Shown: piece after piece, positions 1 to 39,246 of the stretch
Layout: each line of letters opens with the position of its first letter
Numbering within the stretch: position 1 is the first letter of the stretch
DNA from: Raillietiella orientalis
Taxonomy: Eukaryota
DNA: 64,000 nt
Direction of reading: 5' to 3'
Assembly (NCBI GenBank): GCA_036172245.1
Contig: JAYWIR010000095.1
Location: 124,001 to 188,000 of the forward strand
Notes under the pieces: model-generated
Database searches by the model: none
What the model saw: the letters and a program-made list of their open reading frames with translations, nothing else
Told to the model about the DNA's origin: nothing
Program-made: the position numbers and the translations under genes

Positions 1-807
1 GACGTCAACGACAACCAGCCCACCATCGAGCTGATCTTCCTGAGCGACGACGGCACGCCGAAGGTCTCCGAGGGAGCCGAGCCCGGAGAGTTCGTGGCGC
101 GCGTCGGCGTCAGCGACGCGGACTCCCGGGGAGCCTCCTCCGCCGCCGCCGCCTCCGCGCATGAGGCTGCGGCGGGAGCGGGAAGAGGAGGAGCCGGCGG
201 CGGCAGCGGGGTCAATGTGACCCTTGACGGCGGAGAGGACCACTTCGGCCTGACGACCCGCGACGGGGTCGTATACCTGGTGGTCGTCTCCCGCCCCCTG
301 GACAGGGAACGGCGCGCCCGCTACGCCCTGGAGGTCACCGCCAGCGACCACGGAGACCCGCCACTGCGCGCCTCCCGTGTCTTCCATCTGGTCGTCACGG
401 ACGTCAACGACAACGCCCCGAGGTTTCAGAGGGACGAATACCGCGCCACCGTTGCTGAGGCTGCCGACCCGGGCACCTCCGTCATCCGTGTGCGTGCTAC
501 CGACTCGGACGAGGGCGACAATGCCCGCATCTCCTACGCCATCGAGGATCGGCGCGGTCAGCCCAGCTGGTTCCAGGTCGACCCGGCCACGGGGCTTGTG
601 ACCACGCGCACTCACGTGGACTGCGAGATCGACCCTTCTCCGCGGGTGGTCGTTGTTGCCGTGGACGCCGGAGTGCCTCCGCTGTCCTCCTCGGCCACCG
701 TCCTCGTCAGCATCCGCGACGTCAACGACAACGAGCCCATTTTCGACCAGAGCTTCTACAACGTCTCCGTCCGAGAGGATGAGGCTCCGGGCAAGTGCGT
801 GCTCAAG
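1..807 (+). CDS. ds: ds exon w1 (partial at 5'; cadherin repeats ~EC4-EC6)
   Basis: Frame 1 from base 1: DVNDNQPT...PGKCVLK; donor AAG|GTAGGT at 807/808, phase 0. Confidence 0.95.
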
Positions 808-15800: not shown

Positions 15801-18800
15801 CATTAGCAGCTTCGGAGGAAGGAGCGCCGGGTGTCGGGGGATAACCTGGCGGCGCAGAGGGAAGATCGGCGATGTCCCCTCTGGCGATCGGCAAACAAAA
15901 CGCGTACAGAGATGTACGACGCCCCCGAGGCTGCAAAACCTTGGGACGTGACAGCTCCTCTCGGCCTGTGCTCATGGGGTTCTCTCCGCGGACCGTTGCC
16001 ACTGCCATTGCGCTTGGGCGGCGGCCGTCGTCCACCCTCGATTTGCGAGCCCTGGCAAGAAGAAGCAACGAGGCAGTAGTAGCAGGCGCGCCTCCCGACG
16101 CTGACGACCCCTGCCTCTCGCGAGATCTCGCAACCCTTTTTTTTCCCCGCGGACCTCCAGATGGTGTGCGCTGCACGTGTACGTGTCCTGCAAAACGAAA
16201 TCTGCAGACACGCCTCTCTCCCTGAGACTTCGCGGACGTCGACGACGTAGGAGGAGGAGGGGGAAAAAAAAAAGTAAAAAAAGGAGAGGGGGGGGAAGTC
16301 ATCTTCTCGGGTCTCCACCACACTGAATTCTTCGACTGTGGACCGTCACGCGTGATTCCGCTCTCGAAGGAATGCGGACGCGCTCGCGTGGCTGCAGAGG
16401 AAGCTGAGCCGTGCGAGAGCGTTTTTTTTGTTCATCGTTCGCTTCGCCTTCCCAGGCGTATCTCCGCGCGTCGTGGTCGCCAGCTGATGGGCGAAACGAG
16501 GATTATTCTCCGCGGTTGCGAGGAAGGAAGAGAATGGACCTGGCGTTAATCTGGAATCTCTTTAGGCATGCTTGAGATTTCGGAGGGGTGGGGGGTGGGG
16601 TGCGAAGAAGGGCAAAGGGGGAACGCGCGCGCGCACACACACACACACACAAATGTATGCTTGGTTGAGAAGGAATTTCCCCGTTGGGTTCCCGGAAAAA
16701 TCCTATAGAAACCTCGTTCCTGTGCAGAAAAGATTGAGGACAGATCTATAGTCTCGTTCTTCCTAAAGAATGCGCCCGCTTCTGTCACGTGATCATCATC
16801 AGCTTTCTCTCTCTCTCTCTCGAGCAGGCGCTGGAGCTGAGGAGAACGATGGGCTATCTTTTTGCGTGCCATGACCATGCGGGTGCTCCGTGGTCACCAA
16901 GGGATGCTCGGGGATCTCAGGAGAGTGAACGCGCCTTCGGAATGAACGGAATGCCCCGTCCAGGGACGGAGCCTGATCTTCGCTGGTTGCTGTGCATCGC
17001 ATGTCGTCATCCGGCTTTAAGAATTCAGGCGGCTCCAATGAGAACTGCAGCGGCCGGAACTCCCATGCGGAGTGCTCTCTTCCCAAATCTGCGGCTAGAG
17101 AGAGGTGTTCGTGGGGAAAGGATGGGCAGCGCGATTTTCTTTGTCGTGGAGTTCGCGGCCGTACTGCTTGGTGCTCTTCACGCTCTTCCTCTTGTTTCAT
17201 CTCCACACCGACCTTTCCATATGACCACCCCGAGAGTGAGTGGTGCAACCGCCACCCTCCCCCTCCCTTTCTACTAGGGCCCTGTCGGCAAGAATGCCCC
17301 TTTTATCTTAAGGGAAAAATGGTCCATGGGTACACTTGCTCGCTCTTCGAGGGAACGCCTTGCCGTCAGCAGAAGCATTACGGGAGACTGCACTCTGGCG
17401 GTTGCTAGTCCACGAAAGTATCTCCTCCTTCACGTGCAGGTCGGGGTTCAACGATTCCTGGAAGCTCACAAGTGTCCGGAAGATTTCCTCTGCTTCTTCG
17501 AGCTGCTCTGCTCGACACAGAGGAATTTGGAATGGAACGAAGGGAAGGACTCCGTTCATACTCAAAAAGACTCCGTCTCCTCTTTCATACTGCAAAATTC
17601 GTTTGTCATCGAATGACTTGTGCTGAAGAGTTCCTCATCGGAGGAAGTCAATTAGATGAATGGTGATAAACCCGTTTCTTCTTTGCCATTTCCTAGTTAA
17701 TGGACTCCAAAGAGAGAAATCAGTTCAGAAGCGGTCTTTCTCTTTGGAGTGCCTTTGGGCTCTTTCTCTTTAGGAGCTGCCGAAAACCCCACTTCTTCCC
17801 TCCCCCAATTGCTGCGACAGAACCTGCTTGGTCTCTTCCTTGAAAGCAAAAACCTAGTGGACTTACGAGAAAGCAAAAAAAAAAAAAAAACCACCACCAC
17901 CAGCATGTGTGCTAGCTGTTGGGAGTCCTCGATGTATGCCCTTGAGGCCATGTCAGTGTCAGCCTTTGACCTGCACGAGAAGTAGTGCCTTTGCGACGGC
18001 GGCACGCCGTCATCCGAAGGGGGACTGGAGAGATTCTCGAAAAGAAAAAAAACCGCTTGTGGGAATGGTCCAAGAGCAGAAGTGTGGACGGAAACATGGG
18101 AGATGGTGGCGCCGGACTTTCGAAAAACAAAAAGGGAGTCGGTAGTGATAGGGGATCCGCTCAAGTGGACCGGTGACTTGGCGACGAAGAGGCCACGTCT
18201 CGCTTTCTGACTGGAGACAGATGTCTTTCGAGCTAGAAGACGGAGGATTGGGTGTTTAATTGGAAGTTTCTCGTCGAAGAGGATGCAAGTGGCTGGCGAC
18301 CATTTTCCTTGACTCCGCTCGACGTCACCGGCACGAACGAGCGAGAGAAGGCACTGATCGCCAGCCTGCCAAGGTTTATCGCTCCGTTGCGGATTCTGCC
18401 CGTTCCCAAGCTGCTGCTGTCATAATTGGCGGTTTGCTGATGCAGTGCGAAGCGCCTGGAACGCAGCGAGATTCGATACGAAATCACCATTTTGTTTTCG
18501 CGAAACAGCGCTCCCCCTTTGAGTGATGCTTTCCAGAAAACATATTTTTATCACTCCATTGTTTTCGCCAGCATGGGTGTTTAAGTGAATTTCTCCGGGA
18601 TGTCTGCTGCCGCCTCACGCACACCGGCGGTGTGCGCGCGCGCTCTCTGTGCAGCTCTCGTGCCCTCGGTCCGGGCAGCCAAGTGATTCATCGCGCTCCG
18701 CTCGACTTGCCTCGGTCTCGGATGCGCGGCGATCGGTCAGTAGTGATGCACACTCATCGCAGGATCACGTTCTCGTCGTCGACCCTCCCCTCACCCTACC

Positions 18801-21800
18801 CCCCCGATCACCTTTTCGAAGATGGGGAGCCCCTTCTCGCTTCGCCCCTTTCGTGTTTTATCGCCTCGAATCTGATCTGGTGATCGGATGTTTGCATCTT
18901 TCGATGGCCCCTTCTTGCCTCCCCTTGCAATGTGTCCTTTGCTTCGAGATGCCGCGCTTTTTCCTCAACCTCAAGAACGGTGGACAGTCACTCGCGAGGA
19001 AAACACCGGGACTTTCATGCCCTTCCTCGAGTCTTTCCTTGCCTTCGCCTTGGCTCACCGACTTGCACTCTTCCTTTAATTGGCAAAGTGTTATTTAATG
19101 ACACTTTTGAGCTCGTGCGTGACCACATGTGCACGCGGCACAGAAGAAGGGTGTCAAGTGTGTTTGACATTTACACTCGTAAAGGCTGTGCCACGTGTTC
19201 GTACACACAAGTGAGGGACACACGTGTATTCGGGCGCACTCACCCCACCAGTGAAAGAAGGGAGTGTGTGGGTGCAGGCATGTGATGGAGGACTGACGGT
19301 TCTTTTGCTGACGCGCCACTCTCCAAGATACTGCAAGGGTCACGTGAGATTTCCTCTTCGGGTTGTTGGAGCGGTCGCAGCCACACGGACTTTCCGATGG
19401 CACCTCCAGACGTTGGCCCCACGGGAGCGTGATTCTGTCTTTCGTTTTGTGGGAAGATGAAAGAGGACGAAAGGCTTCCGGAAAGATCCTCCCAATAGTT
19501 CCTCAAGGCAGAGGGCACGCTGGAAAACAAACATAAAGAAAGTAGCCTTGTCAGGTTTTTCCCTCTTGTTTGCCCAAGCGCGGTCGTGGCAATAGGAAAA
19601 GCTGTCTCCCTCCGGAACAGCCTCGCCTTCATCAGTATTAATTTATACGCATTTTTCTGGAAGATGTTTGCAAGGTGGAGACAATTAATTGTTTCGTTTG
19701 TGCTGGGAACGATTAGGGCGTGCGCTTTAAGAGGAACATTCTCCGTCATCCGGATTTTCTGTAAAAAAAAAAAAAAAAAAAAAAAAACATGAAAATGAAC
19801 CGACTCCTGCGCTCTGTGCACTCCCTCCAAAAAAAGGATGCGTGTACGATACTTCGGCTCCTCAATCTCGTGTGTACTGCCTTCGTAGTAGTGTGGTCCG
19901 TGATGCTTGCATCCCAGCGGGAACCCTTTGCATTCGCTTAAAGCTCAGCTTCTCTGAGATGCGCGCACGTGGACGGCGGCAGCGCTCCTCTTTGATGAAT
20001 GTGTTTGGGGCTCACTGTCTGAGCATCTGTGTAGGCACCTATGGGCTTGGAGAGTTTCGGGATGAAAGTCGATCTTCCCGTGGTCCGGCGCTGCTCCTCC
20101 GCGAAAGTGGACTTTCGTATAGCGCGACGAAAAAAAAATTGCGACGAGTACTCTTACAGCGTTTCGTATAACGCATAAGGGAGAAATCGAACGTCTTGAC
20201 GTACCTTTCGACTTTCTGTTTAGAAACGCAATGTGTGTACACTCACCCGTTGTTTATGTATACGCAGGGAAGCTCATATTTACAAAAGATGTAGAGGTTT
20301 GTCAAAAAAATAAAATTTTAAGATGTAGGGGAGGAAACATTTTTATTCAATTTTTGAGTAAAACAAACTATTCACTATCGGACATATTTATTCACCATCG
20401 GAAGTATCCACAAATAAATTCCAGCGACATCGTCTCTTTCATCTTGGCTGTACAGATTCATCGCTTGAACGGTCCATAGTTTCGTCCGGATATCATTATC
20501 GTCACTGAGAAACAATCCCTTTTTCCAGATCACTTTTGGCTTGTAGATGTGGGGATGGACGATTTCACTTTTCTTTTAAATCCGATAGAGCGTTCTTTAG
20601 ATCGATAGATCCATTTTCATGGAATATGTTTCTAGCGTTTCGGTTATTTCCAACCCGTTATTTGGAGCCTCCAGACCCAAGTGTTGCTCTGGTGCAAATC
20701 TGGAATGAGCTTTCCTCATCGTTAGTAGAATCAGAACAACGTGCTGATTCTACTAACTCGGCTGCATCAATATCTTGGTTGTGGCTAATTAATTCAGTGA
20801 TGCCTGTGCTTTAAATTCGTGTTTATGTAATTCATTAGAAGAAAAGGGGTCGGCATCTTTCAAATGTTGGTGAATCTTCATTGTCAATCTTCTGTTGTGT
20901 GGCAACACTATTTAAAGGTGTACTTCTCGAGTAGCAATTCTTAATCCATGTCATGAAACACTTTTCCACCTTAGGTATTAACACGTCTTCTATACGGACA
21001 ACTGTATAAAGATGCGGCATACATTTGCGTCTCGTAATCAGCTCTCATTTTGTCGTATTGTACGAATTGCTGACTTTCTCGTAAGTTCCGATGCTTTAGC
21101 GGTGGTTGCCACTTTCGCGCCAGACTTCAACTCATCCGAAATTCCAATTTTTTTCCTCCACGGCTTCTCTCCTCAACTTCTCTGCTATTTTTTTTTCATT
21201 TTTTTTATTTCAGCATGCATGGCTAAAACAGCAAATACTTTTTATAGTTTTTAAAAATGGCACGTAATATTTTTTTTTTTTTGATTATTAAGTTACCTGT
21301 CTTCTGTTTTGTTTTTCCTGTATTAAAAGAAACTTTTATTTAAAGCAAGTTAATTAACAGTCTGTACGCAATGCAGCCGTATTCGAAACCGGCGCACATC
21401 TTCTCATTAGCAATGTGAGATCAGTAGTGGAATTTTTAAACTTGCATGAATTCATCTGACAGTGCATGCCTCGTATGACGCGGTTTCCTATAACGCGGGG
21501 AAGCGTTATACGGGAGTCTACTGTACATCCACAGGGATCCGTCGACGAAAAGTCGTGCCTTCGCCTCCTGTTTCTGTGCATCCGAGTTTCTTCTCCTGTG
21601 TTTGCTCGTCTCCTAGCAACCCGAAGCAAGAGAGTCTTGACCCCACTGGTGACGAAAGGTTCCTTGAAAGGTCGAGATATTCCTTTTTCGGTTCCACCGC
21701 TCCGTTTGCATGCACATCCCCACGAGCTTCAGGTTGCCCTCCAGCGGGTCCCGTAATTGCCCTTCTCTCTCGTTCTCTGATGGCAAAAGACTTCAGAGAA

Positions 21801-23062
21801 GTTCCTGGTACTTTTTCAACACACCGAAAGATCTTAGCTGGAGTTCCTGTGTGCGGTTCCGAAAACCGGTTTGGAAACAAATTGCTCTCATGATCTGTTG
21901 GCTTGCACTCTGGTGTGATTTCCATCTTTGCAATCTGCTCCACGGCGGGTTTCGGATGGAGATTCCAGTTTTTTCCCATTTCCCAGAAGGGAACGTTTGT
22001 TTTTGTATCTTTCTTGGGTTTCTTGACGACCTGCGTTCGGAATCGGGATGGGCGATAGTGATCGGCGCGATAATGGTGCTGGTAACCTAGGCAGTGGATT
22101 TTCACAGAAGACGCCTTGCGAGTGTTCGCTGTCAACCCATTTCTGCGCTTTATTTGGATTGCCTCACTTTAAGCTCACGCAGCTAGGGAAGGAAAAAAAA
22201 TGATTTGTTAAGCGTAGGACACGAGCACGATTCGCAACAAGGATACACGGAAAAGTGACTCCTTAAATCTTCAAGTGTTTGCCTTTCCAAATGGTTCTTT
22301 CGCCGTCCGCATCATGTTCTGCGCGCGCTGGAACACCAAAAATCGTAGCTGGGTGCAGCCCGGCTCTCCCCAGTTTCCGTTGTCATTGAAATGCAGTGAG
22401 CTATCAATATGAACCGCAGCAGCGAAATTTGAAAAAGGAAAAAGAACCTGCCTGATGGTTTTTGTTTTCCTCGTTTCGCCAGCATCCCTTTGGTGATCAA
22501 ACAATAAGGGTTGAGCTCTTGTGTCCGCATGGTCGGAAGATTTCTTACTTCAGCTTGGGTCCCTATGATTACCTAATCGTTTCATTGGACGCAAGTGTCA
22601 ACTGCGCGTTCCACTCTGTAGGTCTCCCGTGGTGAATCAATTTACTGCGAATGACACGGACACCTAAAAGTAACAAAAAAAGAAAAGAAAGAAAGGAAGG
22701 TAGGAAGAAAAGAGTTTGCTGAGAGAGATAAAATTCAAGAATTGTTCTTGGCAGTGTATCTTTGGAATTTCTGTTAACTCGGATAACGGGTTTTCTCCTC
22801 TTCACAACAGAACATTGGAAAATAAACACTTGAAAATCTGCTTCTATTCTCTCCGCGGCAACCGGCTTCATTTCTCTGTCCACGAGTCTTCGTTTATTCC
22901 TGGGGAAACGGAAAATCACCGCGTGCGCGTATGGATCCCCCCCCCCCCCCCCCAAAAAAAAAGCATACACTGTGTCTCAGAGATGCGATGTATTTACTTT
23001 TTAAAGGGCATTTAAGTGTGAATAGTGTAATGGCACAAAAAAGGACGCGCAAGCACGCACGC

Positions 23063-23134
<72 letters not shown>

Positions 23135-24192
23135 GATAGAGAGGAGGAAGGCGAGAACGACTCTCATTTTCTCATTTCCGACTCAAATGGCTCAAGTATC
23201 TTTTTTTCCAGGTATCGGCTACAGATCGCGATTGTGGTGTGAATGCCTTGATCAATTATACCATGGGCGGTGGAGCCAGTTTCCTGCGCAAAAAAAATCC
23301 TTTTCAAGTCATCCCGGACACGGGAGAAGTCTGCATTTCTGGAGATCTTGATTTCGAAACCAGAAGCATTTACGAGTTCACCGTAGTAGCCACAGATAAA
23401 GGTATTCTGTAGGAGAGCTTTTCTTGTACGCAAAGTCCGTCTGCAGGTGGACTCAGCACCACGGCTGTAGTGAAGGCGCACGTTGTGGATGTAAACGACA
23501 ACTCTCCATTATTTTATCCTCGTCACTACAACATCAGCCTTCGGCCTGGACACTCCTTAAACGCCCCGATTGTCGCTGTCATGGCTACGGACTTGGATAC
23601 CAGAGAATTCGGAAAAGTGTCGTACCACATTCTTCCAGAAAGTTCTCCTCATTTCCGCATCGATTCAATAACGGGAGAAATTTTCCTAACTGAAGCCTTG
23701 GGTCCAGATAAGATGACGTACCATCTCACTGTGGGTGCAGAAGATCTTGGCGGACGACCATCGGGGAACAACGCCGAAGTGTTTGTCAGTGTTGTAGACT
23801 CGTCGATGCAACCACCGGTGTTTGAGCATCCTCGATACGCTTTCGCGGTTTCAGAGGACGCACCACCAGGTTCTGCAGTCGGAAAGGTGTTGGCTACCAC
23901 AAGGTCAATCTCAGGTAAGCAGACGTTGTTACCGATACTTGTCGAATTCTTTGTTCAGCCTCCGCTAGCATCAACTACTCGATTTCCTCCGGTGATCCGC
24001 ATCAGTATTTTCAAATTGATTTGACGACAGGAATGATCACTACTAATTCTTATTTGGATCACGAAACGAGTGCGTTCGTGCTTCTGAACGTACAGGCCAC
24101 CTACGGACATCCACCAGTTTATGGGCACGCTCAGGTATGATATGAAAATACTCCATGGTCGGAAATTCCGTCACTCGGACTGAAGCCTGGTT

Positions 24193-24230
<38 letters not shown>

Positions 24231-27200
24231 CTTCTTCTGCCTTTTACAGTGTACTGGATGGAAATACATGGGAGTGTGTTTCCTCCGATATTGTGATCCC
24301 ATCCGCCTGTTGCGAGGCGATTGGAATGTGCTCTGCTTCCTACTAGGCGATGCACCATCCCTCAGTTAATCGGGTTTCAATCTCTGTTCAATCCAGTTTG
24401 TTCTTTCGAGATGCATTCCATGTGCCTGTCCATTACTGGAATTTCAATATGGAGCCGCTCTTTCGGAAGAGCATTCTCGCTTCCTCCTGTTGCACATTTC
24501 CTCATTCCTCGTCTTTATTCTTGCACCTGCCCGACGTCTTTTGATTGGATTTCATGGTTCCGTTTTCGACCTATGGATCCAGACTCCCAGCAGGAGCAAG
24601 GATTCGGGGTATACGCACGGGTGGGTGAGGCAGTTGGCTTTCGTGCTTGGTTTCTGAATATTTGAAACTTGCGCAAGAACAGTTTGTATCTTCCTGTATT
24701 TCGAGACGAAATTCGCTTGCAGCAACGGCGTCCTGTTTCTCTTTCTGTGGAACTGTAAGCCACGCATGCTGCATCTTAGTGATCCGTATATTCTGCCCTA
24801 GTCTACTTTGTCTATTCCTTTCTACTTATTAGCAGATTTACTCGCGACATTTGCTGCCTGACAGTTTCGAAACTCTTCCTTTTTTTTTTCATCTTTCGCA
24901 GGTACAGGTGCCAACAGAAAATGAAAAAAATTGGCTTCTAAGAGTAAATTTTAAGAATTCTTCCCGATCGACATCACACCTACATGCAGTTGCTATTGAA
25001 TGGTACAGAGTTCTTGATGAATGCTGATTCTTATGATTAATTAATGTGCTGCCACATTGGTTTCAGCAGCGTTACGGAGAATCACTGGAAGAATCATTTC
25101 TTATGAGCAGTCGCAGAATTTTTTCCTCTTTCTTCCAGAATATCAATCAGCGCAGGTCCTTCCATTGTATTCAGCCCGTATTTGTCGCGGTCTTTTCGTA
25201 CAGTAAACGGAAGTCTATCTTTAGAAGGAATTTTCGAAGATCCCTAGAGACATGGGATTTATAAATGACACTGGAGACAAGAAGAATGAGAGGAGCGAAA
25301 GACAGGTGGCCATCAAGGAGGTCGCTCGCTTCCAAAAGGGGAATTTCCTTTAATGAATCTGATATTTGTTTACGTTGGAACTTAAGTCCTTTTGGAATGG
25401 GTCTCGAATCGTGTTTCTCGTTTCAATAAACAGCCGTTTCCTGCTCCATGATGCAGTGCCATTCAGATGCATTCCTTTTTGCATTTGATCGAGCTTGGAT
25501 TCTTTTAAGCTCTCCACAGTAGGGATGGGAGAAAGGCAAAGCATGCCTGCAGCGCCTTGGGATTCTTTGGAGAACCTTAGCAAAGGGTGTAGCAATCTCA
25601 CCCAAAGGGTGATTTCCATTCGGAAACAGATGTAATCCTTTTCTTCCACATGGCATTCCTCGGAAGGCCAGCTCGCTAGGGAATTTTAAGACGCTACCTT
25701 CCCGCGCCACGCATCGACAGTGATTGAAATTCAGGCGACTCTTTATAATCAATTTCCGAAACAAGAACTTATGATCGATCATCCACACAATAAAAGTCAC
25801 GTTTGGAAGCCAAAAAAAAAAAAAATAGATATATATATGTGCCATTGACTACTGCGGGAATTCGCACAGCGAAGTCTGTTGCTTTATAAAAACTCGAGCG
25901 CTTGGTGGCAGCCTCACCGGAGTCTATCAGTTTCCCATCTGGTGGTGTGCATGCATTCGAAAAAGTATTCCGTTTCCCCCGCGAGATGTACCCCTGCCCA
26001 AGCAGAACGCAGAGAGGGACTTTCCCCGAGGTGCTTTAAGGATGGATTTTCCATTTCACTTCGCATCTCAGGGTGCGTGTACACAGTATGTTCCTAACGA
26101 GTGTAGGAATATATTGTCTGCAGGATTCAAATGATTTACAGAGATGCATGAGTCCCGAGATGACCAGAGCACTCAGTGCGGTCCCAGAGTCCTGTATCGT
26201 GCAGCCGACCGTGCAGTTGCCAGACCAGCTTGCGCCAGACACAGTTTGCATTGTGCCCAATCAGCCATCAGCTTGCGCATTCCAAGAGATTTTGAAATCG
26301 CTTTTCTTAAGCGGCGAGTGTACGAATTCCGAATACACAACAACGAAACTTTCTTCGTTTTTTAGCGTTCCGTGTGCCCATATCTTTACGTCTGCATTCC
26401 ATGCTTGACACTGCTGAGGTCATTTGCGCTGTTAGAACCTTTCTCTTCTCCTCCAGACGAGTGCGCTTTCCCCGTTAAGAGAACGTAAATTTCTCCTAAG
26501 GTACTCGCGGACATGGGTCGTATGGTTCCACGAACGGCGGCTCCTTTCTCGTCGCGGCGAGGTACTTCTTTTTCCTGTGAATGGGCTCCAGGGCAGCTTG
26601 ATGTTCCTTGTTTTGATGTCACGACGGCCGAGATGTACAAGTGGGGGTGGAATGCAGGAGCCGGACAAACCCAACTGCCTGTTTTCCGTCCTGCCGTGTC
26701 TTCAGAGCAGCTTCCGAGATGGCATCGGCAGGGAGCGACTACCCGCTTGATTTCGGCTGTCGATTGAACAAGTGCGTGCTTTCCTTGCAAAGCCTCGTAC
26801 CGGAAGTGGTGTGATGCTGCAGGTGTCATCTTGCTATTCGTTTCGGTCTACATTTTTGCCACCTAGTGGGGCATTCAGACGCTTGCGATGTCCAGAACAG
26901 CAAAAGACTGCTGCAGGCCTCCTGGAAAATTCGTTTGTTCTTATGATGCATGAATCGGATGTATGCGTGAGATTAAGGAAGGGTATCCCATTCGGTGGAA
27001 TGTTCTGTCTAAGAAAAACCCTCGACCAAGGATGCATTTGAATAGCCCGATAGCCGGAAGGAATCCTTGATACGCCGATCAGGTCACCTACCTAATAGGA
27101 ATGTGTTTGGGAGAAGGGGAGAGAGCTTCGAGAATTTGTATGTGTGTATCCCTGCGCGAGGGAAGAAGAGAGCGAGGAGACCAATCCCTGTAATGCGGCT

Positions 27201-30200
27201 GAAGACTCATCTTCAGATGGTTGCTTGAGTTAGTGCTCGAAACCCCGAAGGATTCTGCGATGCCGCTTTGCAGGCATGCGTCCATGAGTTCTGGAGAAAA
27301 TACCAACCACGCTCTCCACACGTTAGCGTGCCTGTTTGTTTGTTTGTGTGTTTGTTTTCATGTGCTGACTGTTATCCTCCAGACCACGTCCTAATTCCCA
27401 TCCTTTGTTTCTTCTGGTGACGGTGGAAATGCTATCATCTCCTTTTGTATTACTTTTCTTTTCAAGCAGCATGCTCCGCATAGCCTTTTCAGCTAAAGTT
27501 TCATGTTTTTGCTACCAAAGGTCAACATCACTGTCCTGGATGTCAACGACAACATTCCGGAATTCGACAGCGCTTCCGTCAAAATCTTCTTGCCTGAAAA
27601 TACACCTCTGGACTCCGCAGTGTACGTCGCGTCCGCGGAGGATCCAGACAGTGGGGAGAACGGAGAAGTCCGCTACAGAATTTCTAGAAGCAACAAGATT
27701 TTCGACGTGGATCCTGATCAGGGAGTCGTAACGCTGATCAGGGAGCTGGACTATGAGAAAGACAAGCATTACACCGTTGTGCTGGAGGCCACGGACCGGG
27801 GCACCAGCCCGCTGACGTCCACCATGCTGATCAACGTGGAAGTTCAGGACGTTAACGACAACGTTCCACTCTTCGACAAGAGCGACTACGAAGTGCAGGT
27901 GCTGGAATCCCTCGCTGTTAACACTCAGTTCCTACAGGTAGGCGAATCCCCAAGCGGGTTGCTATGAGGGTGCGGGACACCCCGTACCTGTATTCGGGAA
28001 TCGCAAAGACCCACTGTGGTGACTTCCAGGTGAAAGCAACGGACATGGATACGGGAAACAACGCCCGTTTGACCTACAGAATAACGGACAAGTTTCCCCA
28101 TACAACGTTTGGGATATTCCCGAACAACGGATGGCTGTATTTAAAAGAGCAGCTGGACAGGGAGAGAATGGATACATACTCACTGCAAATAGTGGTTTCC
28201 GATAATGGCCTCCCTCCACTCAGCTCCACCATCTCTGTCACCATCCAAGTTCTGGACGTTAACGACAACGATCCTCGTTTCGTAAACACGTCTTACCACT
28301 TTCGCGTTCCTGAAGACTTGCAAACGGGAAGTCCAATCGGTTTTGTCGGCGCGACGGACGAAGACTCAGGGATAAACGCAGATCTTCGCTTCTTATTTGT
28401 TTCCGAAAATTCTCATTTTCATATCGACTCCACCACAGGTGAGTACCTTCCCACTCCCTTTGCTAAAGGCAAAGATAGGCTCCGGGGATCCTCGTAGAAG
28501 TGGATCCCTGCATCCTACGTTGAAAATGCTAAAGATGACTGTGCTCACGTTGGCTTTCGAGAGATTATTCATCTCGATGCTGTCAGGGAGATTGTATGGG
28601 AAGGGACGTGGGATGAGCAACTCGTTAGCATTCACAAGTGCTTTTCTTTCGTACCGGCGGCTTCTCGCATCTTCCAAAGCAAAGTTTCTGAGAAAACGCA
28701 GCTCTGCTTCGTGTCCCCCTAAGAATGCAGGACTCCCTAGAGAAATATTTGCTATCATCAGGAGACGATCCTGTGGTAGAGTTGTCACTTTTCCCTCAGA
28801 AACTCTTTTCATTTTTGGATCCTGCCAAGGTTGCTTCAGGGCAGCATTTGAGCTTTCAACCATCCATTCGAATTACCTGCCTTTGGGAGGTAGCCCTTTT
28901 AGATTGCAGACTCCACGAAGGTTTTCTTCTTTGTTCTTCTGCAGCTTCTCCCCTTATCGCTCTCTTCATCCTAGTCGTCTACCTTTCCCGAATCTATGCA
29001 ACCATTATCATCTAGGATGCATTTTTGCATCTTTCGTCGTTCAGAAAATCCTTCATCAAGAAAAGGAAACGTTTGCCGATTAACAGTCATTCGACAGAGT
29101 AACGAGTACCGTTCTGACTGCGAAATTGCTGCCTCCCACCTTTTGTTATTTCTGTGGGGTTAAAAACACCCTTCTCTGACTGATCACTGTCCGCTTCCCT
29201 TTCTTCTTCACTGACTGTTTTTCTTTCATGTGTTTGTTTGTTTTTTTTTCAGGACAACTAACCACGAAGCATCCTCTGGATAGGGAAACCAGATCCATCT
29301 ACGAATTCGTAGTCGAAGTGAGAGATGGTGGAACACCAGCGAGAATTTCCCAAGCCACAGTCAAGGTCACTCTGACTGATGTAAACGATAACGCTCCCGA
29401 ATTCATCGAACCGAGAGACAGTATTGCCGTCTCTAGGGGAGAACAGCCCGCTGGTTCCCAGATCGCTAAAGTAATAGCTGTCGATAAAGATGATGGAAAG
29501 AATGGAACTGTCAATTATTTTCTTCTTGATGGTCCGTTTATCTATTTTTTACCTTCCTTTTTAATTGGCTTTCTCAGATGACAAAGGGGACAATCGCTTT
29601 TTTTCGGTCGATCCCAACACGGGGATAATAACTTCGAAATTACCACTAGAGCGCATGAACAGGCAGTGGTACAACATAAGAGTAGGAGCCACGGATGGAG
29701 GCAATCCGCCCATGCGGTCATCTCTTCTCCTGAAGGTGGAAATACTGGATGCTGAAGCACATGGATTCGAAGTGAGCGATTCTTCGATATCGTTCAAGGT
29801 TTGTATAGCAGCAGCAGCGATTCTTCCTCATAATTGTCTTTCAGTTCAAAGTAAAAGAGAATTTGGAAATCGGAAGCAGAATAGGGAAGGTGTTCGTTCC
29901 AAGCTGTAGGAACATCGAAATATGTAACGCCACCTATAGTTTGACGAACGAAGATGCAGGAAACTTTTTCTACGTCGATAGAATTACAGGAGAAATCTTT
30001 GTGGTACGACCACTTGACTACGAGCAGCAGTCACAGCACATTTTGTTGTTGAATGCGGAAGAAAACGATGTCAGTGCTTTCTATGCCACCTCAGTTCGGG
30101 TGGATATCGAAGTGGAAGACGTCAATGATAATCCTCCAGTCTTCTCAGAACGTGTTGTAAACATCAGCATACCTGAGGATGCAATTCCTGAATCTTCCTT

Positions 30201-33200
30201 TTGGAATTGCAGTGCAGAGGACAAGGACGGTGGTTTGAACTCTTTGACTCACTTTTCCTTGGTGACCCAGTACCCTGGCGACGCTTTTGAACTGGACAGT
30301 GCTACCTGCCTCCTGTCTCCAAAATCTTCTCTGGATTACGAACATATTCGTCATTATTCTGTGCTGGTTGTCGTTGCCGATCAACCAGAAAACGCATCCG
30401 AAAAATTAAGTCATTGGCAAATTGTAAACATAAATGTAGTTGATGTTAATGACAATGAGCCCCGATTCCTATCTACGAGTTCCATCAGAGTTTACGAAAA
30501 CGAAAGAGTGGGAAGTGCTTTGCTGAAAGTGATAGCGATCGATGAAGACTCTGGAGAAAATGGAAAAATTACTTATGTTATCCATTCGGGAAACAAAGAT
30601 TCTAGTTTCGCATTGGGCAGCTTATCAGGTAATCGTTCATGATATGTGGATATACACTGCAAATGTATTTTACTTGTGCTACGGGAAAAAGCGACCGCAA
30701 TGTGACAGACGGATCTTTGGATGCGCTGCATTTTTTTTTTTTCTTTTGGCTTGAAGTTAAATACCATTTACAAAAACTCTCCTAAGATTTAGGTTCTGAC
30801 TGAGCTTTTGCTCACCAGCTGTTCTTCTTAGAGACGCACTCTCTCACTGTAGACCAGAAGGACGCGACTTGTGACAGTTCCTGCCGAAAATCATAAGAGT
30901 CCCATTGCAACGTCATGAGATTTTGTGCCGTCAGCCGATCCGTATCTTTCTTGCAAAAACGACTTTGATTAAAGCGTTCCTCGGATTTGCCGATCTCTGC
31001 TTTTGAGGTCTTGGGCTGTAGAATGGACTTCAAGATACACACTTTCGAGTTTTCAATCACCGCTAATTAAGTCTGGAGAGCAAGAATATCGGTTTGCTTA
31101 TCAAGTCCATCCTTTTAAACACTTGCGAAGCCTTAAGCAATGAAGCATGTTTCAACAGGAGCAGCAATCTTGAAAATACCAATTTCTTAGGGCACCGAAC
31201 GAATATCCAATTTCCTGAAAGAGTCTTTGATGAATTCACGTAATTAAAATCTCTCGATTTTTCATTCAGCACCTTTCGTCTTCCCGAATTTTCTTGTCCG
31301 TCGCATGATCCCACTTCTTCAAATCGGGATGCTCTCCAGAATTGCTAATTATTACCGAGGTTATGTTTTCGGGAAATTTGGGTCTGCATCAAGTGGCTTC
31401 TTGGTCTTTATCTTCCCTGCCTGTTCTTTCACTTGCAAAGCAGTGGAACCATTCCCGAATACTTCCCTTTCTAGGATTCAGTGAGAGAATAATGAAATTG
31501 TTTGCCAGAAATTCTACTATGTCGTGGGAACTTACCGAAAAAATAGTTATCGTTCACATCTGTGATACGAACACGAATAGTTGATGTTTTTTTCGAGGCA
31601 TGATGATGATGATGTGAAAACTGATCTGAAAGAATGATGAAACTCTCCCACGTTTTCTTAAGAATGTTTGCTCTCATTCCAGGAATCTTGTCTCTTCAAA
31701 AACCTCTAAGTCGTGCCAGGAATTCCATTTACCACATTAACATCACCGCAAAGGACGGAGGCACTCCTTCTCACGAGCAGTGGCAAATCTTGGAGATATA
31801 CGTCGAAGACATTGTGGCCAAGAGACCCACCTTTCAAAAAGTTTCTTACGACGTTGATTTTCCAGAAAACAGTCCTCCAGGAACGAGAGTCTTTTCCGTG
31901 CCCGTGAAAACGGAAAACGTTGACGGTAAGCACAGTGGCTGTACTATCGCTATTGTTTGCTGTTCCTCCCAGATGTCTACAAGAACTTATCGTACGCCAT
32001 CATAGGGGAAACCATTGGGAACCATTTTCAAATCGATTCCAGTACTGGAATCGTGACATCCTTAGAAGAGTTTGACCGCGAGCAACAAGAACTTTACGTG
32101 ATTCCAGTTATCATGAAAAATGACTGGGCCAAACAGAGTTACGATCTGGCAACTATTCGTGTTCGTATCACAGATGTGAACGATAACGATCCCCAGCTAC
32201 AGAACTGTTACCCTCTTCATGTTTCCGAGAATAATGATTTCATGGCCATTCATTCCGTGGTAGCTCATGACAAGGACACTGGCATCAACTCCGAGGTTAC
32301 ATATAGCATCGCAGGAGGGAACCAGGAAAATCTGTTCAGTATCGATCTTCATAAAGGAAAACTGTACACTCGTTCCCTGGACCGCGAAACAACAGGGAGC
32401 CACGAACTCACTGTTTCGGCGCAAGACAGCGGTCGCCCTTCCCGAAGGTCATATTGCAACATCACCGTGCTGGTGCTGGATGAAAACGACAATGATCCAG
32501 AATTCGAGAGCCCGCATTACGCCATAACAGTACGAGAAGATGTAGTCACGGGTACAGAAATCCTGACCGTCGTTGCTAAGGACATAGATCTGGGAGTGAA
32601 TTCCCTGATCACCTATTCTTTGGACAATGAAACGAGTTGGCATTTCGTGATCGACAATCGGACCGGGGTCATCCGAACGAAAGGGTAAGCGGGAAAAGCC
32701 ACTGGATTGTGTTGAACGGGATGGACTTTCAGACCTTTGGATCGGGAAAAGCAAGGTACATTTGAATTTGAAGTCCGGGCTTCAGATGGTGGCCAGTACA
32801 ATACTCGTTTCGCTCGAGCGAAAGTGTTCATCACTCTCGAGGATGTCAACGACAACAGTCCTTTGTTTGACAAGTATCCTTTCTCTGCCGAAATTCCAGC
32901 ATCCACGCAACCGGGTGCACATCTCCTTCAAGTTACAGCAGCAGACCCAGACGCGAACATGAATGGGAAAATTGAGTTCAGGTGAGTCCACAATAGCGCA
33001 TAGTTTTGCTCTTCAGAAAGAAGTGATCTTCTTCCCCCCATATCTCTTATTTGTTTTTAAGATGAAATTTCCTGGAAAGTTCGTGAAAAGGCTCTTCAAA
33101 CCGATCAGCGTTCGGAAATATCCGCCTTCTTCCTTCAATTCTAAATTTTGTCCCGCTTTCACTCTCATCTCCTACTTTCTTGCTGTATTATTTTCCGAAT

Positions 33201-36200
33201 CTCTTCGCAGCTTCACTGTGCTCCTAGGAATTGCTTTTGTTGTTTTTTTCCTGCCGAAACAGCTAACAGATTCTCTGGTAAAAATGAATGAAGGTGATCT
33301 TCCATTTTGAGGTCCAGGGGACTTCACGGTAATCACCTTCGTTCAAGGCGCAAGCTGAAGAAATCACGAGATTGAGGAACACGAATGAGTACACGAATTG
33401 GCAATCACATATGAACGCAGCAGAGTGTAGCACTAATGGACACTTGTCAGATAATGCGCGGATAATTTTTGAAAGCTTCTCAGCAACGCAGCCTCACAAG
33501 ATCTTCTCAGTAGCGATAATGTAAAGTTATTCGAAGTACAAGAAAGAATTTCCTTCCATGTTTTTTTTTTTTTTTTTTTTTTTTTTTATCTTCAAATGCT
33601 CATGGACGTAAGAACGAAGCTGAAATAATCCAAGTAAGAAGGAAGGAAAGCCTTTCTTGTTGCTTGGCTCTCTCTTGAACCCTCACATGTCAGGTGTGAC
33701 TCTTTCTCGTATTGATGTAGTTTGTCCTCGCTAAGCAACAGTGCTGATAATGCTTGAGAAAACCTTGCTCCTTTAAATGCTCCCAGGATCCTTTTACCGA
33801 GTGTAGTTATGTGCTTCTTGTGTTTTCTCGAAACCTGCACTTTCTCTCCTCGATGAGGTCGACCGTTCGCCAACACCCGAAGACTGTCGGCTCGCGGACT
33901 TAACGAAACACAAATTGTGCGTAAAATTCGCTTCTGTCATCGGCATCTACATTCACGCTGAGATTCGATCGTGAGGGCATTTTGCAAAATTGCTGTAGCC
34001 AAACTTCACAAAGACAGCAGCTAAATCCAGTCCATCTTCCAGCTTCCTCGCCAACCAAAAGATGTTTCGGATAGAGCCAGATTCTGGGGTCGTAACGGCG
34101 GCTACAAGCCTGCGAATGGAATCAGGACGAAACTTTCAAGTTCTGGTGCTGGCCAAAGATAAAGGGGTCCCCGCAAGAAGTTCAACAGGACTGATAGAAA
34201 TCCACGTGTCTTCTCCCGATTCCAAAGCGCATCTGGAACTCAAGTTTTCAAACGCCAGCTACCACGTTTCCGTTCCCGAAGACCTACCCGTTGGTTTCCA
34301 GGTAGCCACAGTCAAAGCAGCACGTACTGATGCTCGAAGGCACAGCGTGTGGTATAGCCTTGTCGAAACGAGTGGGGATTCCTCATTCGCCATTGACCGT
34401 GCTACTGGTGTGATCCGTGTGACCAGGCAGGGTGTCCTGGACTACGAAAGGCAAAACAGGTTCCAAATTTTGGTCGAAGCCAAAAGCGAAAACCTCGATC
34501 AGTTCTTGCATGGGTTCGCGGTTGTGTGCTTGGATGTGCTCAACAGGAACGATAACGCACCCGTGTTTACCCAAGAAGTGTACTTCGCTTCCGTTTGGGA
34601 AGGCAACAACAAGGGAGCTTTCGTCATTGAAGTTCGAGCAATCGACGAAGACACGGATGATGCTGGTTCAAAACTCTCTTACAGTATCATCGAAGGGAAT
34701 TATGACAATGCCTTTATCATTGATTCCCCATCTTCCGGCATAGTCAAAACGAACATTGTCCTCGACAGAGAAATTTCTGATCAATATAAACTGACAATTA
34801 TTGCTGTCGACGAAGGTCAAGTTCAGCTAACGGGTACTTGTCTTCTGCTGGTGAACATAGTAGATATGAATGACAACCAACCAATCTTCCCTCCTCAGCG
34901 GACTGTTTTTGTTAGAGAAGGTGAGTGTCTGTTTTTTTTTTTTTGTTGTTGCTGTTAATGTCAGAGTTGGGATCTCATAAAAATATGCGATAACATCTAC
35001 CTCCAAACACGTACCCACAGTTCTGCAAACGCCAAGTGGCATGAGGGGGGAAGGTGGCATGGAAGTGATCCTAGCAAAAATGAGGTTGTAGGAACACAGC
35101 GATCGTTTTTGAGCAATGACAGCGACCGACTTGCAGTGATTCATTCTGTTTTTTAATGCATTTCCCCCCTCCCCCCCAAATATTGCGGCCTTTAGGTATT
35201 TCCCCTATCTCCATGTTTTAGACTGAACGGTGCCATTAATGAATATTGATAATGTCTTCAGTCTTTGATCATACTGAAGTGCGGCTGCAAGAACGCGGCA
35301 TTCCCCCGCCTGTTGGACTTTGCGTGTTCTGTATTGGTATGAGCAGCCTCTGTGGATCCCGAACTGCTGTTACCTGAACTCTTCATGATAACTAAGGCAT
35401 GGAAAAGGGAGCGGCAGGATTTTCGCGCCGTACCCCATTAAAACCTCCGGATTTTCCGGCGTGGAAATCAGCTGCGTGACTGTTCTTTTAGAAGCTGTTC
35501 ACAGGTCATCTGAGCTATTAGGCATTCGAAATCTTAGTTGGCTCAGATAACGAGAGTTGGTAGAAATTCACGTTCCATTTCAAAAGATTTGAAAATTTGT
35601 TAGGTCCTTTTGTGTTTTGTTTTTGCTTTTGCATCTCCATTCGAGTTCTGCACTCCAGTGTGATAAAAGACTGAAGACATGACAGAAGGCTTTTCGATTA
35701 ATAAGTTGCTGCTATTTGGGAGTGCAGGTCATTTTTTCGTGAATCTAGTAGATCGATGAAAGAAATGCGTGTATTCTGAATCGGTTTCTTCGGAAGACTG
35801 TACTTGTTCGAAGTTCAAAAAAAAAAAACAAAAACGTAATTAATCAGACTTTGTGAAATTTTCACGATCCTATTTCGGAAAAATCGCAATTAAGTGTGTT
35901 TGTATGCGTTCCGGGCGGGTAAAAAAAATAAAAATAAAATGGTCCACACGTATTTCCATAAGCAGTGACCGAGAATTTCATAGGTCCAAAAAGCCCGCAG
36001 CAAACGTCATTTGCATTTTTACTTTCAGATGTTAACATAGGATCCCTTGTGACCACTGTGGTCGCGAATGACGTGGACACTTTCCCGTATCTTGTTTATT
36101 CCTTCGCTGATGATGACGTGCAAGAGATGTTTAGCGTCGATTCCTACAGTGGGAAGATTCTGCTGCTGCAGTCTCTGGACTATGAAAAGCAAACCTCACA

Positions 36201-39186
36201 TAATGTACGGTTGCGAGTGTCCGATGGCAAGCACATATCTGAGACGAATTTGGAATTGCAAGTGCTCGACTGTAATGACAACGCGCCTATCTTCACCCAT
36301 GATTCGTATTTCGGACTGATTTCCGGGTCCACAGAACTTTCGAAGCCAATCCTTACTGCCAACATTTCGGATAGGGATTCTGCGGAGAATGCTCGTGTCG
36401 TGTACAGCCTGACGCACGATCCGAGTAAGAGCTTCTACATCGACCAAAACACCGGTGTCTTGTATACCAACCGTACAACGAGATTCACTGCGGATCATCA
36501 AGTCATACAGTTTCTGATTGTGGCCCGAGATGCCGGAAACCCAATGTTATCCAGCATTGCCACGGTGCATTTACAGGTTGCTGATGTCAACGATCATACT
36601 CCAGCCTTTCAGCAATCTCTGTACAAGTAATATAAGAAAGATTGTTTTTTTTTCTTCCTTTCTTTTAACTCCCGGATCTTTTATTTTAGAAAACGAATTG
36701 GCGCAGATACGCTTCCTGGATCAAAAATAATCCAAGTAAATGCAAGTGATGCAGATGTTTCCAGATGGAACAGCCAGATAGATTATTCCCTCGATGGAGA
36801 CAAAGACCACCTTTTCGAAATCACCAGGTCAGGAACTTGTTCTTGTGCAACGTGCTCATTCTCTGGTTTCGCTTCCAGCACTGGGGAAGTGTTTCTTGTG
36901 GGCAGGATCAACCCAGACCAGAGAAGCATGTATCGGTTAAAAATCACAGCAACCGACAGAGGGGTGCCACCTCGCAGCAGCACGGCAGAACTGCTCGTAT
37001 CTATCGAGAGCAACGAAAATGCCATTCCACGATTCAATCAGACGGAACTCAATGTGTGTGTCAAAGAGTCCACCGCTCCTGGCACTGTCGTAGCTCAAGT
37101 TCACGCATACGGCGGCAACGTCCACTCACCAATCGAGTATCGTATCGTTGCTGGAAATGAGGACTCCAGCTTCAAGGTGGATCCCAACTCTGGGAAAATA
37201 AGTCTAATGAAATCCCTGGATTTTGACTGCCTGGGATGCAGCTTGCGCTCCCTCGTGGTGGAAGCCGTTGTCAAAATCAATCACTCGGTATCAGAAGCAT
37301 CCTTAACCATAGTAACAGTGAATGTTACAGACGAGAACGACAATGCCCCCTTTTTCCCTTTAGATCATTACCGAGAATTCGTATTTGAGAATTCTCCAGT
37401 CGATTCATCCATCTTCCAGATCTCAGCAATAGATAAAGATTCGGGAATCTACGGCGAAATTGAATACAGTATCATAGCAGGAAACGAAGCCGGGAACTTT
37501 GCAATTGATTCAGAAACTGGAACAGTGGTAGCCAAGACCTCGTTTGATTACGAAGCTCAAACACTGCATCAGCTTCAAGTTAAAGCGAAAGATAAAGGAG
37601 GGAAGTGGGTCTCAGCAGATGTGTCCTTGCATATAGGGAGCCAAGACGAATACCCTCCAGTTTTTTCCCCAAGCAAATATCGATTCGTGTTACCTGGAGA
37701 TTTTGGTGATGATTACACAGTAGGTACTGTATTTGCCAGAGATCAGGATGCAGGAATTGACGGAAGAGTAATATATCAACTGAAAACCGACAATCCGTAT
37801 TTCAAAATCAATAAAACGAGTGGAGTTATATCGACCCAAAAGTCATCGGAAGATCAAGAAGACAAACACGCCTTAGACAACATCAGTATTATTGTAATAG
37901 CAGCAAGCGGGAAAGTTCACTCTTTAAGTAACTCGGCACTGGTGGAGGTCACTGTGAACTCTTCTCTAAAGGCATCTCAAGGAATCATCGTCGGACAAGA
38001 CACTAGTACCACGTATTGGGCGATGGCCCTAGTGATCATTTTCACTGTCATTGCATCATGCGCGACTGGCGTTTTGGTGTTTGTGCGTATTAGAAACAAA
38101 AAGCACTTGAAAGCTCCTTTAGCAGGCCATTATGATACCGCTTTCGACGCCCTGGATATTCCAACAAGCGATGGAGCGTTTTCCCAGTTCCCGCCCCACT
38201 ATAACGACATTGCAACATACGACATCAGAGAGAAAAAGTCCCTTGACCAAAAAGACATAACGCGCGATTTTTCGGAGCAGAGTAATTCCAGCGGGAGGGG
38301 ATCTGCAGAGGATGTAGAAGACGTCGAGGACGAAGAGATAAAAATGATCAACGAGAGGCAGATCCTGCATCAGAAGCATTTTCTGGCCGACTCCAACGTT
38401 CGTGATGTTGATGACATGTCCGACAATTCCATCCAGAATACGCAAGCCTATCTTGCTAGATTGGGCATCGATACTAGCGGTCTTTGCGAATCAAGCAAAG
38501 ATGCTCCTGATACTTCGGAAAGCATGGAGAGCATGCACATGTTTGATGATGAAGGAGGAGGAGAAAGTGATGGGATGGTGGATATCAGTAATCTGATTTA
38601 TTCCAGATTGAGTAACGATAAAAGTGTAAATACGAAGAGGACATTAAGTTTCGATGAAACCCAGCCATCGATGTCTGGTTCCTTAAGTTCAATTGTGCAT
38701 TGTGAAGAAGAACTCACCGGCAGCTATAATTGGGACTACTTGCTAGACTGGGGTCCCCAATATCAGCCTCTGGCTCACGTCTTCTCAGAAATTGCCCGAT
38801 TGAAGGATGATGATACCTCATCAGTTATAGTGCCAAAGAAGCTTCCTTTCCCCATGGCAAAAACAAGAACTCCTCTTCCTGCCCTATTGACTAATCCCCT
38901 CCAGAGGAACACTCCTGTGGTCGCATTAAGCAATCAAACTAGTCAATCATTATCTGTGTCATTGCCTTCTGCGACCCGATCTCCAATTAATAACGAATTC
39001 AGTTTTGCAATTCCCGCAATGTCCCCCAGTTTCTCCCCATCTTTATCACCTTTAGCCACAAGGTCGCCCTCTATGTCGCCGTTAATCGGCCCGTACTCTT
39101 CCATACAACCATGTTACATTAGCAAATGTATCGCATCAAACATTCCCGAAAAAACAGTGCATTCCGAAACAGAGTTGAGAATTTAA
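1..39186 (+). CDS. ds: dachsous protocadherin gene (5'-truncated by window; 16 coding exons, 2958 aa visible, 24 cadherin repeats + TM + cytoplasmic tail)
   Basis: Spliced translation is open throughout. Ds-diagnostic peptides: [108 protein letters not shown]. All introns GT-AG with matching phases. Confidence 0.97.
4139..4377. repeat. ~240-nt polypurine (GA-rich) low-complexity tract
   Basis: Almost exclusively A/G on the + strand. Confidence 0.9.
9507..9558. repeat. (GC)n/(GCGT)n alternating purine-pyrimidine microsatellite
   Basis: gcgcgcgcgc...gcgtgcgtgcgt... seen directly. Confidence 0.85.
10817..10945. repeat. compound microsatellite (TTC)22(TCC)21
   Basis: Counted directly. Confidence 0.95.
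11284..11536. repeat. imperfect tandem duplication, 2 copies starting 133 nt apart
   Basis: CAGGTCAGTCGCC...CTCCGGCAGGGA...GCCCCTCCAGGGCAG...CCGTCTCCACGGTC(A/T)CCATGGT(G/A)AC repeated at 11284 and 11417. Confidence 0.9.
20105..21523 (-). mobile_element. decayed, internally deleted pogo/Tigger-type (Tc1/mariner superfamily) DNA transposon
   Basis: Minus-strand end TA|CAGTAGACTCCCGTATAACG at 21525-21504; degenerate partner AAGTGGACTTTCGTATAGCG at 20105. Fragments [29 protein letters not shown] (HTH_psq-like), [25 protein letters not shown] and HEFKA (CENP-B/Tc5 HTH-like), then C-terminal-like [16 protein letters not shown]-rich relative to flanks. Confidence 0.75.
23068..23133. repeat. (CA)33 microsatellite
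   Basis: Counted directly; ends 78 nt before exon w2. Confidence 0.95.
23212..23401 (+). CDS. ds: ds exon w2
   Basis: Acceptor TTTTTTTCCAG|; [17 protein letters not shown]...[19 protein letters not shown]; donor G|GTATTC. Missed by the ORF track. Confidence 0.93.
23447..23914 (+). CDS. ds: ds exon w3
   Basis: Acceptor CTGCAG|; [21 protein letters not shown]...TRSIS; donor G|GTAAGC. Confidence 0.93.
23959..24134 (+). CDS. ds: ds exon w4
   Basis: Acceptor TTGTTCAG|; [21 protein letters not shown]...[27 protein letters not shown]; donor CAG|GTATGA. Missed by the ORF track. Confidence 0.9.
24197..24228. repeat. (CT)16 microsatellite
   Basis: Counted directly. Confidence 0.95.
27521..27937 (+). 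CDS. ds: ds exon w5
   Basis: Acceptor ACCAAAG| (AAG type); [15 protein letters not shown]...NTQFLQ; donor CAG|GTAGGC. Confidence 0.92.
28030..28438 (+). CDS. ds: ds exon w6
   Basis: Acceptor TTCCAG|; [18 protein letters not shown]...HIDSTT; donor G|GTGAGT. Confidence 0.93.
29253..29531 (+). CDS. ds: ds exon w7
   Basis: Acceptor TTTTTCAG|; [12 protein letters not shown]...VNYFLLD; weak donor G|GTCCGT. Confidence 0.87.
29578..29798 (+). CDS. ds: ds exon w8
   Basis: Acceptor TTCTCAG|; [16 protein letters not shown]...SSISFK; donor AAG|GTTTGT. Confidence 0.85.
29845..30628 (+). CDS. ds: ds exon w9
   Basis: Acceptor CTTTCAG|; [10 protein letters not shown]...FALGSLS; donor G|GTAATC. Confidence 0.9.
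31546..31583 (-). repeat. perfect 38-nt inverted copy of ds exonic sequence 32150-32187
   Basis: GTTATCGTTCACATCTGTGATACGAACACGAATAGTTG is the exact reverse complement of CAACTATTCGTGTTCGTATCACAGATGTGAACGATAAC. Confidence 0.97.
31683..31925 (+). CDS. ds: ds exon w10
   Basis: Acceptor ATTCCAG|; [11 protein letters not shown]...KTENVD; donor G|GTAAGC. Confidence 0.9.
31973..32684 (+). CDS. ds: ds exon w11
   Basis: Acceptor CCTCCCAG|; [10 protein letters not shown]...TGVIRTK; donor GG|GTAAGC. Confidence 0.93.
32733..32981 (+). CDS. ds: ds exon w12
   Basis: Acceptor CTTTCAG|; [10 protein letters not shown]...NGKIEF; donor AG|GTGAGT. Confidence 0.93.
34043..34920 (+). CDS. ds: ds exon w13
   Basis: Acceptor CTTCCAG|; [15 protein letters not shown]...VWEGNNKG...RTVFVRE; donor G|GTGAGT. 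Confidence 0.93.
36029..36626 (+). CDS. ds: ds exon w14
   Basis: Acceptor CTTTCAG|; [17 protein letters not shown]...AFQQSLY; donor AA|GTAATA. Confidence 0.92.
36690..36827 (+). CDS. ds: ds exon w15
   Basis: Acceptor TATTTTAG|; [22 protein letters not shown]...DHLFEIT; donor AG|GTCAGG. Missed by the ORF track. Confidence 0.85.
36879..39186 (+). CDS. ds: ds terminal coding exon (last cadherin repeats, TM ~38014-38085, cytoplasmic tail)
   Basis: Acceptor CTTCCAG|; hydrophobic [24 protein letters not shown] followed by RIRNKK; conserved Ds/DCHS intracellular motifs; TAA at 39184-39186. Confidence 0.95.
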
Positions 39187-39246
39187 GAGATTTGTTTTTG
39201 TTTTTTTCCAATTTTTCCAATGGAAATTTCTATGTGATATTCATCA

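Follow-up and report, generated by a model that had tools for sequence, protein, structure and literature searches.

A perfect 38-nt reverse-complement copy of a Dachsous calcium-linker exon in an upstream intron, probably a young templated inverted insertion

Introduction

Why would an intron of a Dachsous gene hold a perfect antisense copy of 38 nucleotides from one of the gene's own exons? The window considered here, i.e., the whole 64,000-nt stretch of DNA that was analysed, contains such a pair, with one arm in an intron and the other further downstream, in an exon that encodes a calcium-binding linker. A preliminary description of the locus had proposed that the two arms form an intron-exon duplex, which could direct A-to-I recoding by ADAR, alter splicing or promote back-splicing, and it had named a recent templated insertion as the neutral alternative. 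The choice between these readings bears on a wider issue, as the origin of editing-complementary sequences is poorly documented, and a search of open-access full texts and preprints returned no paper on an origin by inverted exon duplication. If true, a one-step origin of an editing-complementary sequence from its own target exon would be a simple and testable answer. Here, we ask whether the copy at this locus is better read as an evolved RNA element or as the trace of a mutation.

Results

Layout of the Dachsous gene

The gene that carries the copy is a Dachsous orthologue (Table 1). Using tblastn with the Limulus protein, we obtained a colinear path that ran from residue 349 at base 1 of the window to residue 3314 at position 39183, and the last exon encodes four cadherin domains, a membrane span and the cytoplasmic cadherin motif. 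The best full-length relatives, from horseshoe crab, mantis shrimp, scorpion, barnacles and ticks, are all named dachsous and share 40–45% identity with it, while the best exon-sized protein matches shared 43–50% identity across 77% of the query or more, and shorter ones reached up to 56%. When exon w11 served as the protein query against metagenome contigs, two loci at 34–38% identity came up, which are too distant for a comparison of introns.

Around the copy, the splice sites of w9, w10 and w11 all follow the GT..AG rule, and splicing of w9, w10 and w11 gives an open frame that runs colinear with residues 1307–1896 of Limulus Dachsous, with 2 gap positions in 591 columns. The intronic arm stops 99 nt short of the 3' splice site of intron 9. 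Besides these 99 nt, the loop between the two arms comprises the whole of w10, the 47-nt intron behind it and the initial 177 nt of w11. The introns on both sides of w11 are minimal, at 47 and 48 nt, compared to the 1054 nt of intron 9.

The base composition of the Dachsous gene shifts sharply along its length: the exon at positions 1 to ~900 and the first ~19 kb of the ~22-kb intron that follows have a GC content of 53–67%, and the remainder of the gene and of the window has 40–52%. Long open frames in all six frames, together with long low-complexity runs, occur in the GC-rich part (positions 1–23200). Homopolymers of A or T with lengths of 23–27 nt are located at 19763–19787, 33561–33587, 41840–41862 and 42864–42889, in introns and intergenic stretches. 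Past the Dachsous stop codon, positions 39200–64000 showed no convincing coding frame among stop-to-stop frames of at least 110 codons, whose translations were judged by eye.

Table 1. Positions of the two arms, their flanks and the surrounding gene features within the 64-kb window.
Feature	Position	Strand	Description
Dachsous orthologue	1..39186	+	colinear with Limulus Dachsous residues 349–3314; 5' end outside the window
Exon w9	ends 30628	+	gene model
Intron 9	30629..31682	+	1054 nt, GTAATC...CAG; carries the copy
Left flank CGAAAAAA	31536..31543	+	A6 run; half of an 8-bp inverted repeat
Intronic arm	31546..31583	+	38 nt, copied as reverse complement from within exon w11; inside intron 9
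Right flank TTTTTTCG	31588..31595	+	within a T7 run; second half of the 8-bp inverted repeat
Exon w10	31683..31925	+	243 nt, phase 1-1
Intron 10	31926..31972	+	47 nt, GTAAGC...CAG
Exon w11	31973..32684	+	712 nt; followed by a 48-nt intron (32685–32732)
Exonic arm (source)	32150..32187	+	in w11; encodes (A) and 12 residues, DxNDN calcium-binding linker

Identity and ends of the inverted copy

We found the intronic arm (GTTATCG...AATAGTTG) to match the reverse complement of the exonic arm at all 38 of its 38 positions, with a spacing of 566 nt between the arms. The pair is the longest exact inverted repeat of the 64-kb window. After removal of low-complexity runs, a single other exact inverted repeat of at least 18 nt was left in the window besides it; complex exact direct repeats of at least 18 nt were absent from the window. 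When up to three mismatches were allowed, the 38-mer occurred at two sites in the whole window, namely the two arms, and 100 dinucleotide-preserving shuffles of the window gave no match to it. A search for the exact 38-mer in metagenome contigs likewise gave no match. The repeat search stretched the pair to 41 nt at 98% identity by adding one mismatch and two matching bases on one side, an extension that is at chance level, and a blastn search with a word size of 7, run with all of intron 9 against positions 20000–40000, returned no significant similarity besides this 41-nt match. Hence, the copy ends sharply on both sides.

The preliminary description had reported a perfect 38/38 antisense copy, an abrupt end of similarity on either side, and a loop of 566 nt that contains w10 and a 47-nt intron; re-alignment of the two arms was exact, the small-word blastn search found nothing beyond the 41-nt match, and the gene model reproduces both the spacing and the content of the loop. 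Its assignment of the exonic arm to a calcium linker of Ds at about EC16/17 also agrees with the position in the Limulus protein that is given below.

The other complex repeat of the window joins 14512–14569 with 14680–14737 (31 nt exact, ~58 nt with a few mismatches, ~110 nt apart). It is situated in the GC-rich intron; it may be an element that forms a hairpin, or it may likewise stem from a template switch. A 31-nt inverted repeat in yet another Dachsous intron (35252–35282 and 35650–35680), whose arms are 90% complementary and 367 nt apart, resembles the ends of a small non-autonomous transposon.

Source, direction of copying and age

The exonic arm encodes a strongly conserved stretch. 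Across 138 aligned homologues, the D, N, D and P of the linker were found in 136, 138, 135 and 138 sequences, respectively. As the arm corresponds to about residue 1716 of the 3314 residues of Limulus Dachsous, arithmetic at ~107 residues per repeat fits a linker at about EC16/17. Because w11 is in frame, colinear with its orthologues and carries this conserved motif, the exon is the source; an insertion of 38 nt there would have shifted the reading frame. Copying thus ran from the exon to the intron.

Between the arms, no difference was found over the 38 intronic sites and ~10 exonic sites that are effectively neutral (~48 in all). By our own estimate, this puts the 95% upper limit at ~0.06 substitutions per site since copying, unless the identity has been actively maintained. 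From this identity alone we infer that the copy is young and neutral. It would have arisen in a single mutational event.

The insertion site

To the left of the copy stands CGAAAAAA-TA (31536–31545) and to its right ATGT-TTTTTTCG (31584–31595), and the two 8-mers are reverse-complementary to each other. Minus the insert, the site would be a small quasi-palindrome in which an A6 and a T7 run are separated by a 6-nt spacer. In a control over positions 20000–63900 of the window, with a 38-nt gap and 14-nt flanks, an inverted repeat of at least 8 bp occurred at 64 of 43,900 positions (0.15%), and with directly adjacent flanks it occurred at 0.13% of positions. Since the flanking repeat was spotted after the fact, we take these frequencies as a hint and not as a test. 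Microhomology at the junctions, judged by eye, was weak: 0 nt at 31583/31584, and 2 nt past a mismatch at the other junction.

Artefact, antisense exon and mobile element as explanations

A short patch of this kind might be an artefact of assembly or polishing, in which case the 38 nt would be absent from the organism's DNA. Searches, metagenome contigs included, turned up no second copy of the locus, which leaves room for such an error, yet the 64-kb window is free of N, the patch sits within otherwise unique intron sequence, and its junctions are unique on both sides. Moreover, chimeric reads should, by our own reasoning, produce long contiguous palindromes rather than a short patch 566 nt away. 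As the patch is short, its junctions are unique and no N is present, we consider an artefact very unlikely. A different reading places the copy in an antisense exon, or in a minus-strand gene nested in intron 9. On the minus strand, an acceptor-like ttctttcag (31627–31635) and a donor-like gtaagt (31530–31535) bracket the copy, which furthermore lies within a 74-codon minus-strand open frame (31471–31695). However, neither this frame nor five or six other frames of intron 9 contained a Pfam family above its curated cut-off, frames of such length are expected by chance in ~1 kb of DNA with 42% GC (our own estimate), and splice-like hexamers are common in AT-rich introns. The bracket and the open frame are therefore probably due to chance, and we regard a nested minus-strand gene or exon as very improbable. 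A MATalpha_HMGbox match among the open frames of intron 9 scored 16 bits against a cut-off of 28 and was set aside as chance level. A mobile element, such as a MITE, was also considered: no further copy of the sequence was present in the window, and the frames of intron 9 contained no transposase-like domain. Candidate terminal repeats at 30840–30859 and 31469–31488 (80%) were attributed to chance, given that the same 3-kb stretch contains nine further pairs of comparable quality. Rfam at gathering thresholds gave 0 matches over the whole window. Within the scope of the window, neither a transposon signature nor an RNA family or protein domain appears to account for the site.

Pairing of the arms, editing and splicing

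In silico folding predicted that the two arms pair with a free energy of −64.7 kcal/mol, at a mean pair probability of 0.996 and a lowest value of 0.917 in a 1.4-kb context. A fold of positions 31500–32250, which had been suggested in the preliminary description, contained the helix in both the minimum-free-energy (MFE) and the centroid structure (z = −4.65 compared to 20 shuffles). The predicted pairing is no sign of function or selection, as perfect complementarity alone gives it. Pairing before removal of the intron is plausible because the intronic arm is transcribed first and the exonic arm begins 468 nt downstream of the point where intron 9 ends.

Could this helix be an evolved editing-complementary sequence, at which ADAR recodes the EC16/17 calcium linker and thereby shifts the stiffness of Dachsous? 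The strength of the predicted pairing, with its near-complete mean probability and its presence in both the MFE and the centroid fold, would suit such a role, and 12 adenosines lie in the exonic arm, 10 of which would change the encoded residue upon A>G conversion. A perfect and sharply bounded helix is, however, what a brand-new copy looks like, while known selective ADAR sites sit in imperfect helices; and because the D and N of the linker are nearly invariant, their disruption would more likely be harmful than useful. An intronic stretch that pairs with the edited exon is a described determinant of ADAR sites (PMC1920255, PMC3479170), and the neighbour preferences given in PMC3113232 (5' U>A>C>G, with helices shorter than ~50 bp edited at few sites) single out adenosines with the favoured 5' U at 32155 and 32167 (I>V) and at 32185 (N>D), where 67 of the 138 homologues carry N and 60 carry H. 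Adenosines with a 5' A, second in rank by the same rule, are found at 32152 (T>A) and at 32180 and 32186 (N>S). The same source, in the part cited here, describes short or loop-broken helices as the ones that are selectively edited (PMC3113232). The preliminary description had expected changes of D>G or N>D/S in the DxNDN motif, and its D>G part does not agree with these preferences: both Asp codons (GAT) carry a 5' G, the worst neighbour for ADAR (PMC3113232), and the opening base of the invariant Asn codon has the same neighbour. Hence, D>G would be the least likely outcome even if ADAR acts on the helix. A search of open-access full texts and preprints found no paper on A-to-I recoding of dachsous. 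Taken together, we judge an evolved editing element improbable at this site. Much the same holds, at marginally lower probability, for a role as splicing regulator, in which the helix would loop out w10 and promote either its in-frame skipping or back-splicing into a circular RNA. Pairing across an exon favours skipping or circularisation, and reverse-complementary intronic pairs drive exon circularisation. Both splice sites of w10 indeed lie between the arms, and skipping of w10 would keep the frame open, owing to its length of 243 nt and its phase of 1-1. But one of the arms lies inside w11 and not in the downstream intron, whereas the usual layout involves paired flanking introns, and loss of w10 would remove 81 residues and break a cadherin repeat.

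Discussion

We propose that the intronic arm is a young templated inverted insertion without an evolved function, an explanation that we hold to be probable, if short of assured. According to this model, 38 nt of w11 would have been copied as reverse complement into intron 9, ~600 bp upstream, in one event. The copying could have occurred by a template switch during replication, or by fold-back or otherwise templated synthesis during the repair of a break, and the new stretch would have landed between the A6 and T7 runs of a small quasi-palindrome. Since then, the copy has probably been neutral or slightly harmful, and it would not have acquired a role. As a by-product, the pre-mRNA would contain a perfect 38-bp intron-exon helix, to which dsRNA-binding proteins might bind in passing.

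In orientation, length, sharpness of its ends, perfect identity and A/T-tract context, the case fits a templated insertion. Had the copy been an old duplication or a long-kept structure, one would instead expect signs of decay or a helix with imperfections. The neutral alternative that the preliminary description had offered next to its editing proposal, a recent templated insertion, thus comes out as the better fit, because the copy is perfect, sharply bounded and placed in a poly(dA:dT) quasi-palindromic site. As a counterpoint, the template lies 566 nt off and the microhomology at the junctions is weak.

Overall, a functional reading is less likely than the neutral one. Some molecular effect of a perfect helix with a predicted −64.7 kcal/mol is nonetheless conceivable, as it would be a plausible substrate for dsRNA-binding proteins. 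A form of the functional reading that incorporates the insertion is that of a newborn editing site, in which one template switch gave rise to a Dachsous helix that ADAR now edits detectably, most likely with I>V and N>D/S changes of the EC16/17 linker; we consider this unlikely. For now, the functional reading is a hypothesis attached to an ordinary mutation. If the copy is neutral, the locus adds one more clean case of templated inverted insertion, and it illustrates that such events can instantly make a long perfect intron-exon helix within an essential planar-polarity gene. The locus would matter more if the helix proves to be edited or alters splicing.

Upon comparison with RNA elements, the pair shares features with several known systems. 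Like the editing-complementary sequences of GluR-B (Q/R and R/G sites; PMC1920255) and Gabra-3 (I/M site; PMC3479170), as these are described in the cited parts of both papers, it consists of an intronic complement of an exon in the same pre-mRNA, with a helix long enough for ADAR to bind. Unlike those elements (PMC1920255, PMC3479170), the Dachsous helix is perfect, its intronic arm lies upstream of the exon, the D>G sites are disfavoured and editing is putative. The resemblance goes no further than an intronic stretch that is complementary to an exon. One template switch can create a de novo miRNA hairpin (bioRxiv 10.1101/2023.04.19.537475, in the portion cited), which sets a precedent for the one-step birth of a structured RNA element that may acquire a function later. 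The Dachsous pair is dissimilar to a miRNA-like hairpin because its loop measures 566 nt. Similar to the intron pairs that drive circular-RNA formation, its complementary stretches bracket an exon and the splice sites of that exon. In those pairs both arms are intronic, whereas here the downstream arm lies inside w11, and the layout is atypical for circular RNAs because that arm is exonic.

The closer parallels are found among the products of mutation. Polymerase-theta templated insertions are short inverted copies of local sequence at breaks. Template switches need a single step to yield perfect hairpins and reverse-complement repeats (PMC5453318, PMC8794818), and poly(dA:dT) tracts, which are tied to fork stalling and breaks, are enriched at the switches (PMC7954356), according to the sections of these papers that are cited here. 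As in the four-point template switches described there (Loytynoja & Goldman 2017, PMC5453318; Walker et al. 2021, PMC7954356; Monttinen & Loytynoja 2022, PMC8794818), the Dachsous intron contains a reverse-complement copy of a nearby stretch, and it shares with those products a perfect, hairpin-capable inverted repeat, dissimilar flanks and a putative origin by a single event. It differs in that the template is 566 nt away, versus the ~100 nt within which such switches are looked for, and in that one of the arms is coding. Because the published detectors of short-range switches examine a range of ~100 nt (PMC7954356, in the part cited), the cited surveys are silent on how frequent a distance of 566 nt may be. 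In yeast break repair, fold-back events, in which one end primes synthesis and the other captures the product, are described as leaving inverted insertions of 2 to ~150 bp with 0–5 bp of microhomology at the junctions (PMC11724301, in the passages cited). The Dachsous insertion resembles these in being a short inverted copy of local sequence, although in the yeast events, as presented in that source, the template adjoins the break and clear inverted microhomology primes the synthesis, whereas here the microhomology is weak (PMC11724301). Considering all of these systems, the feature most likely belongs to a known class, the products of template switching and templated insertion.
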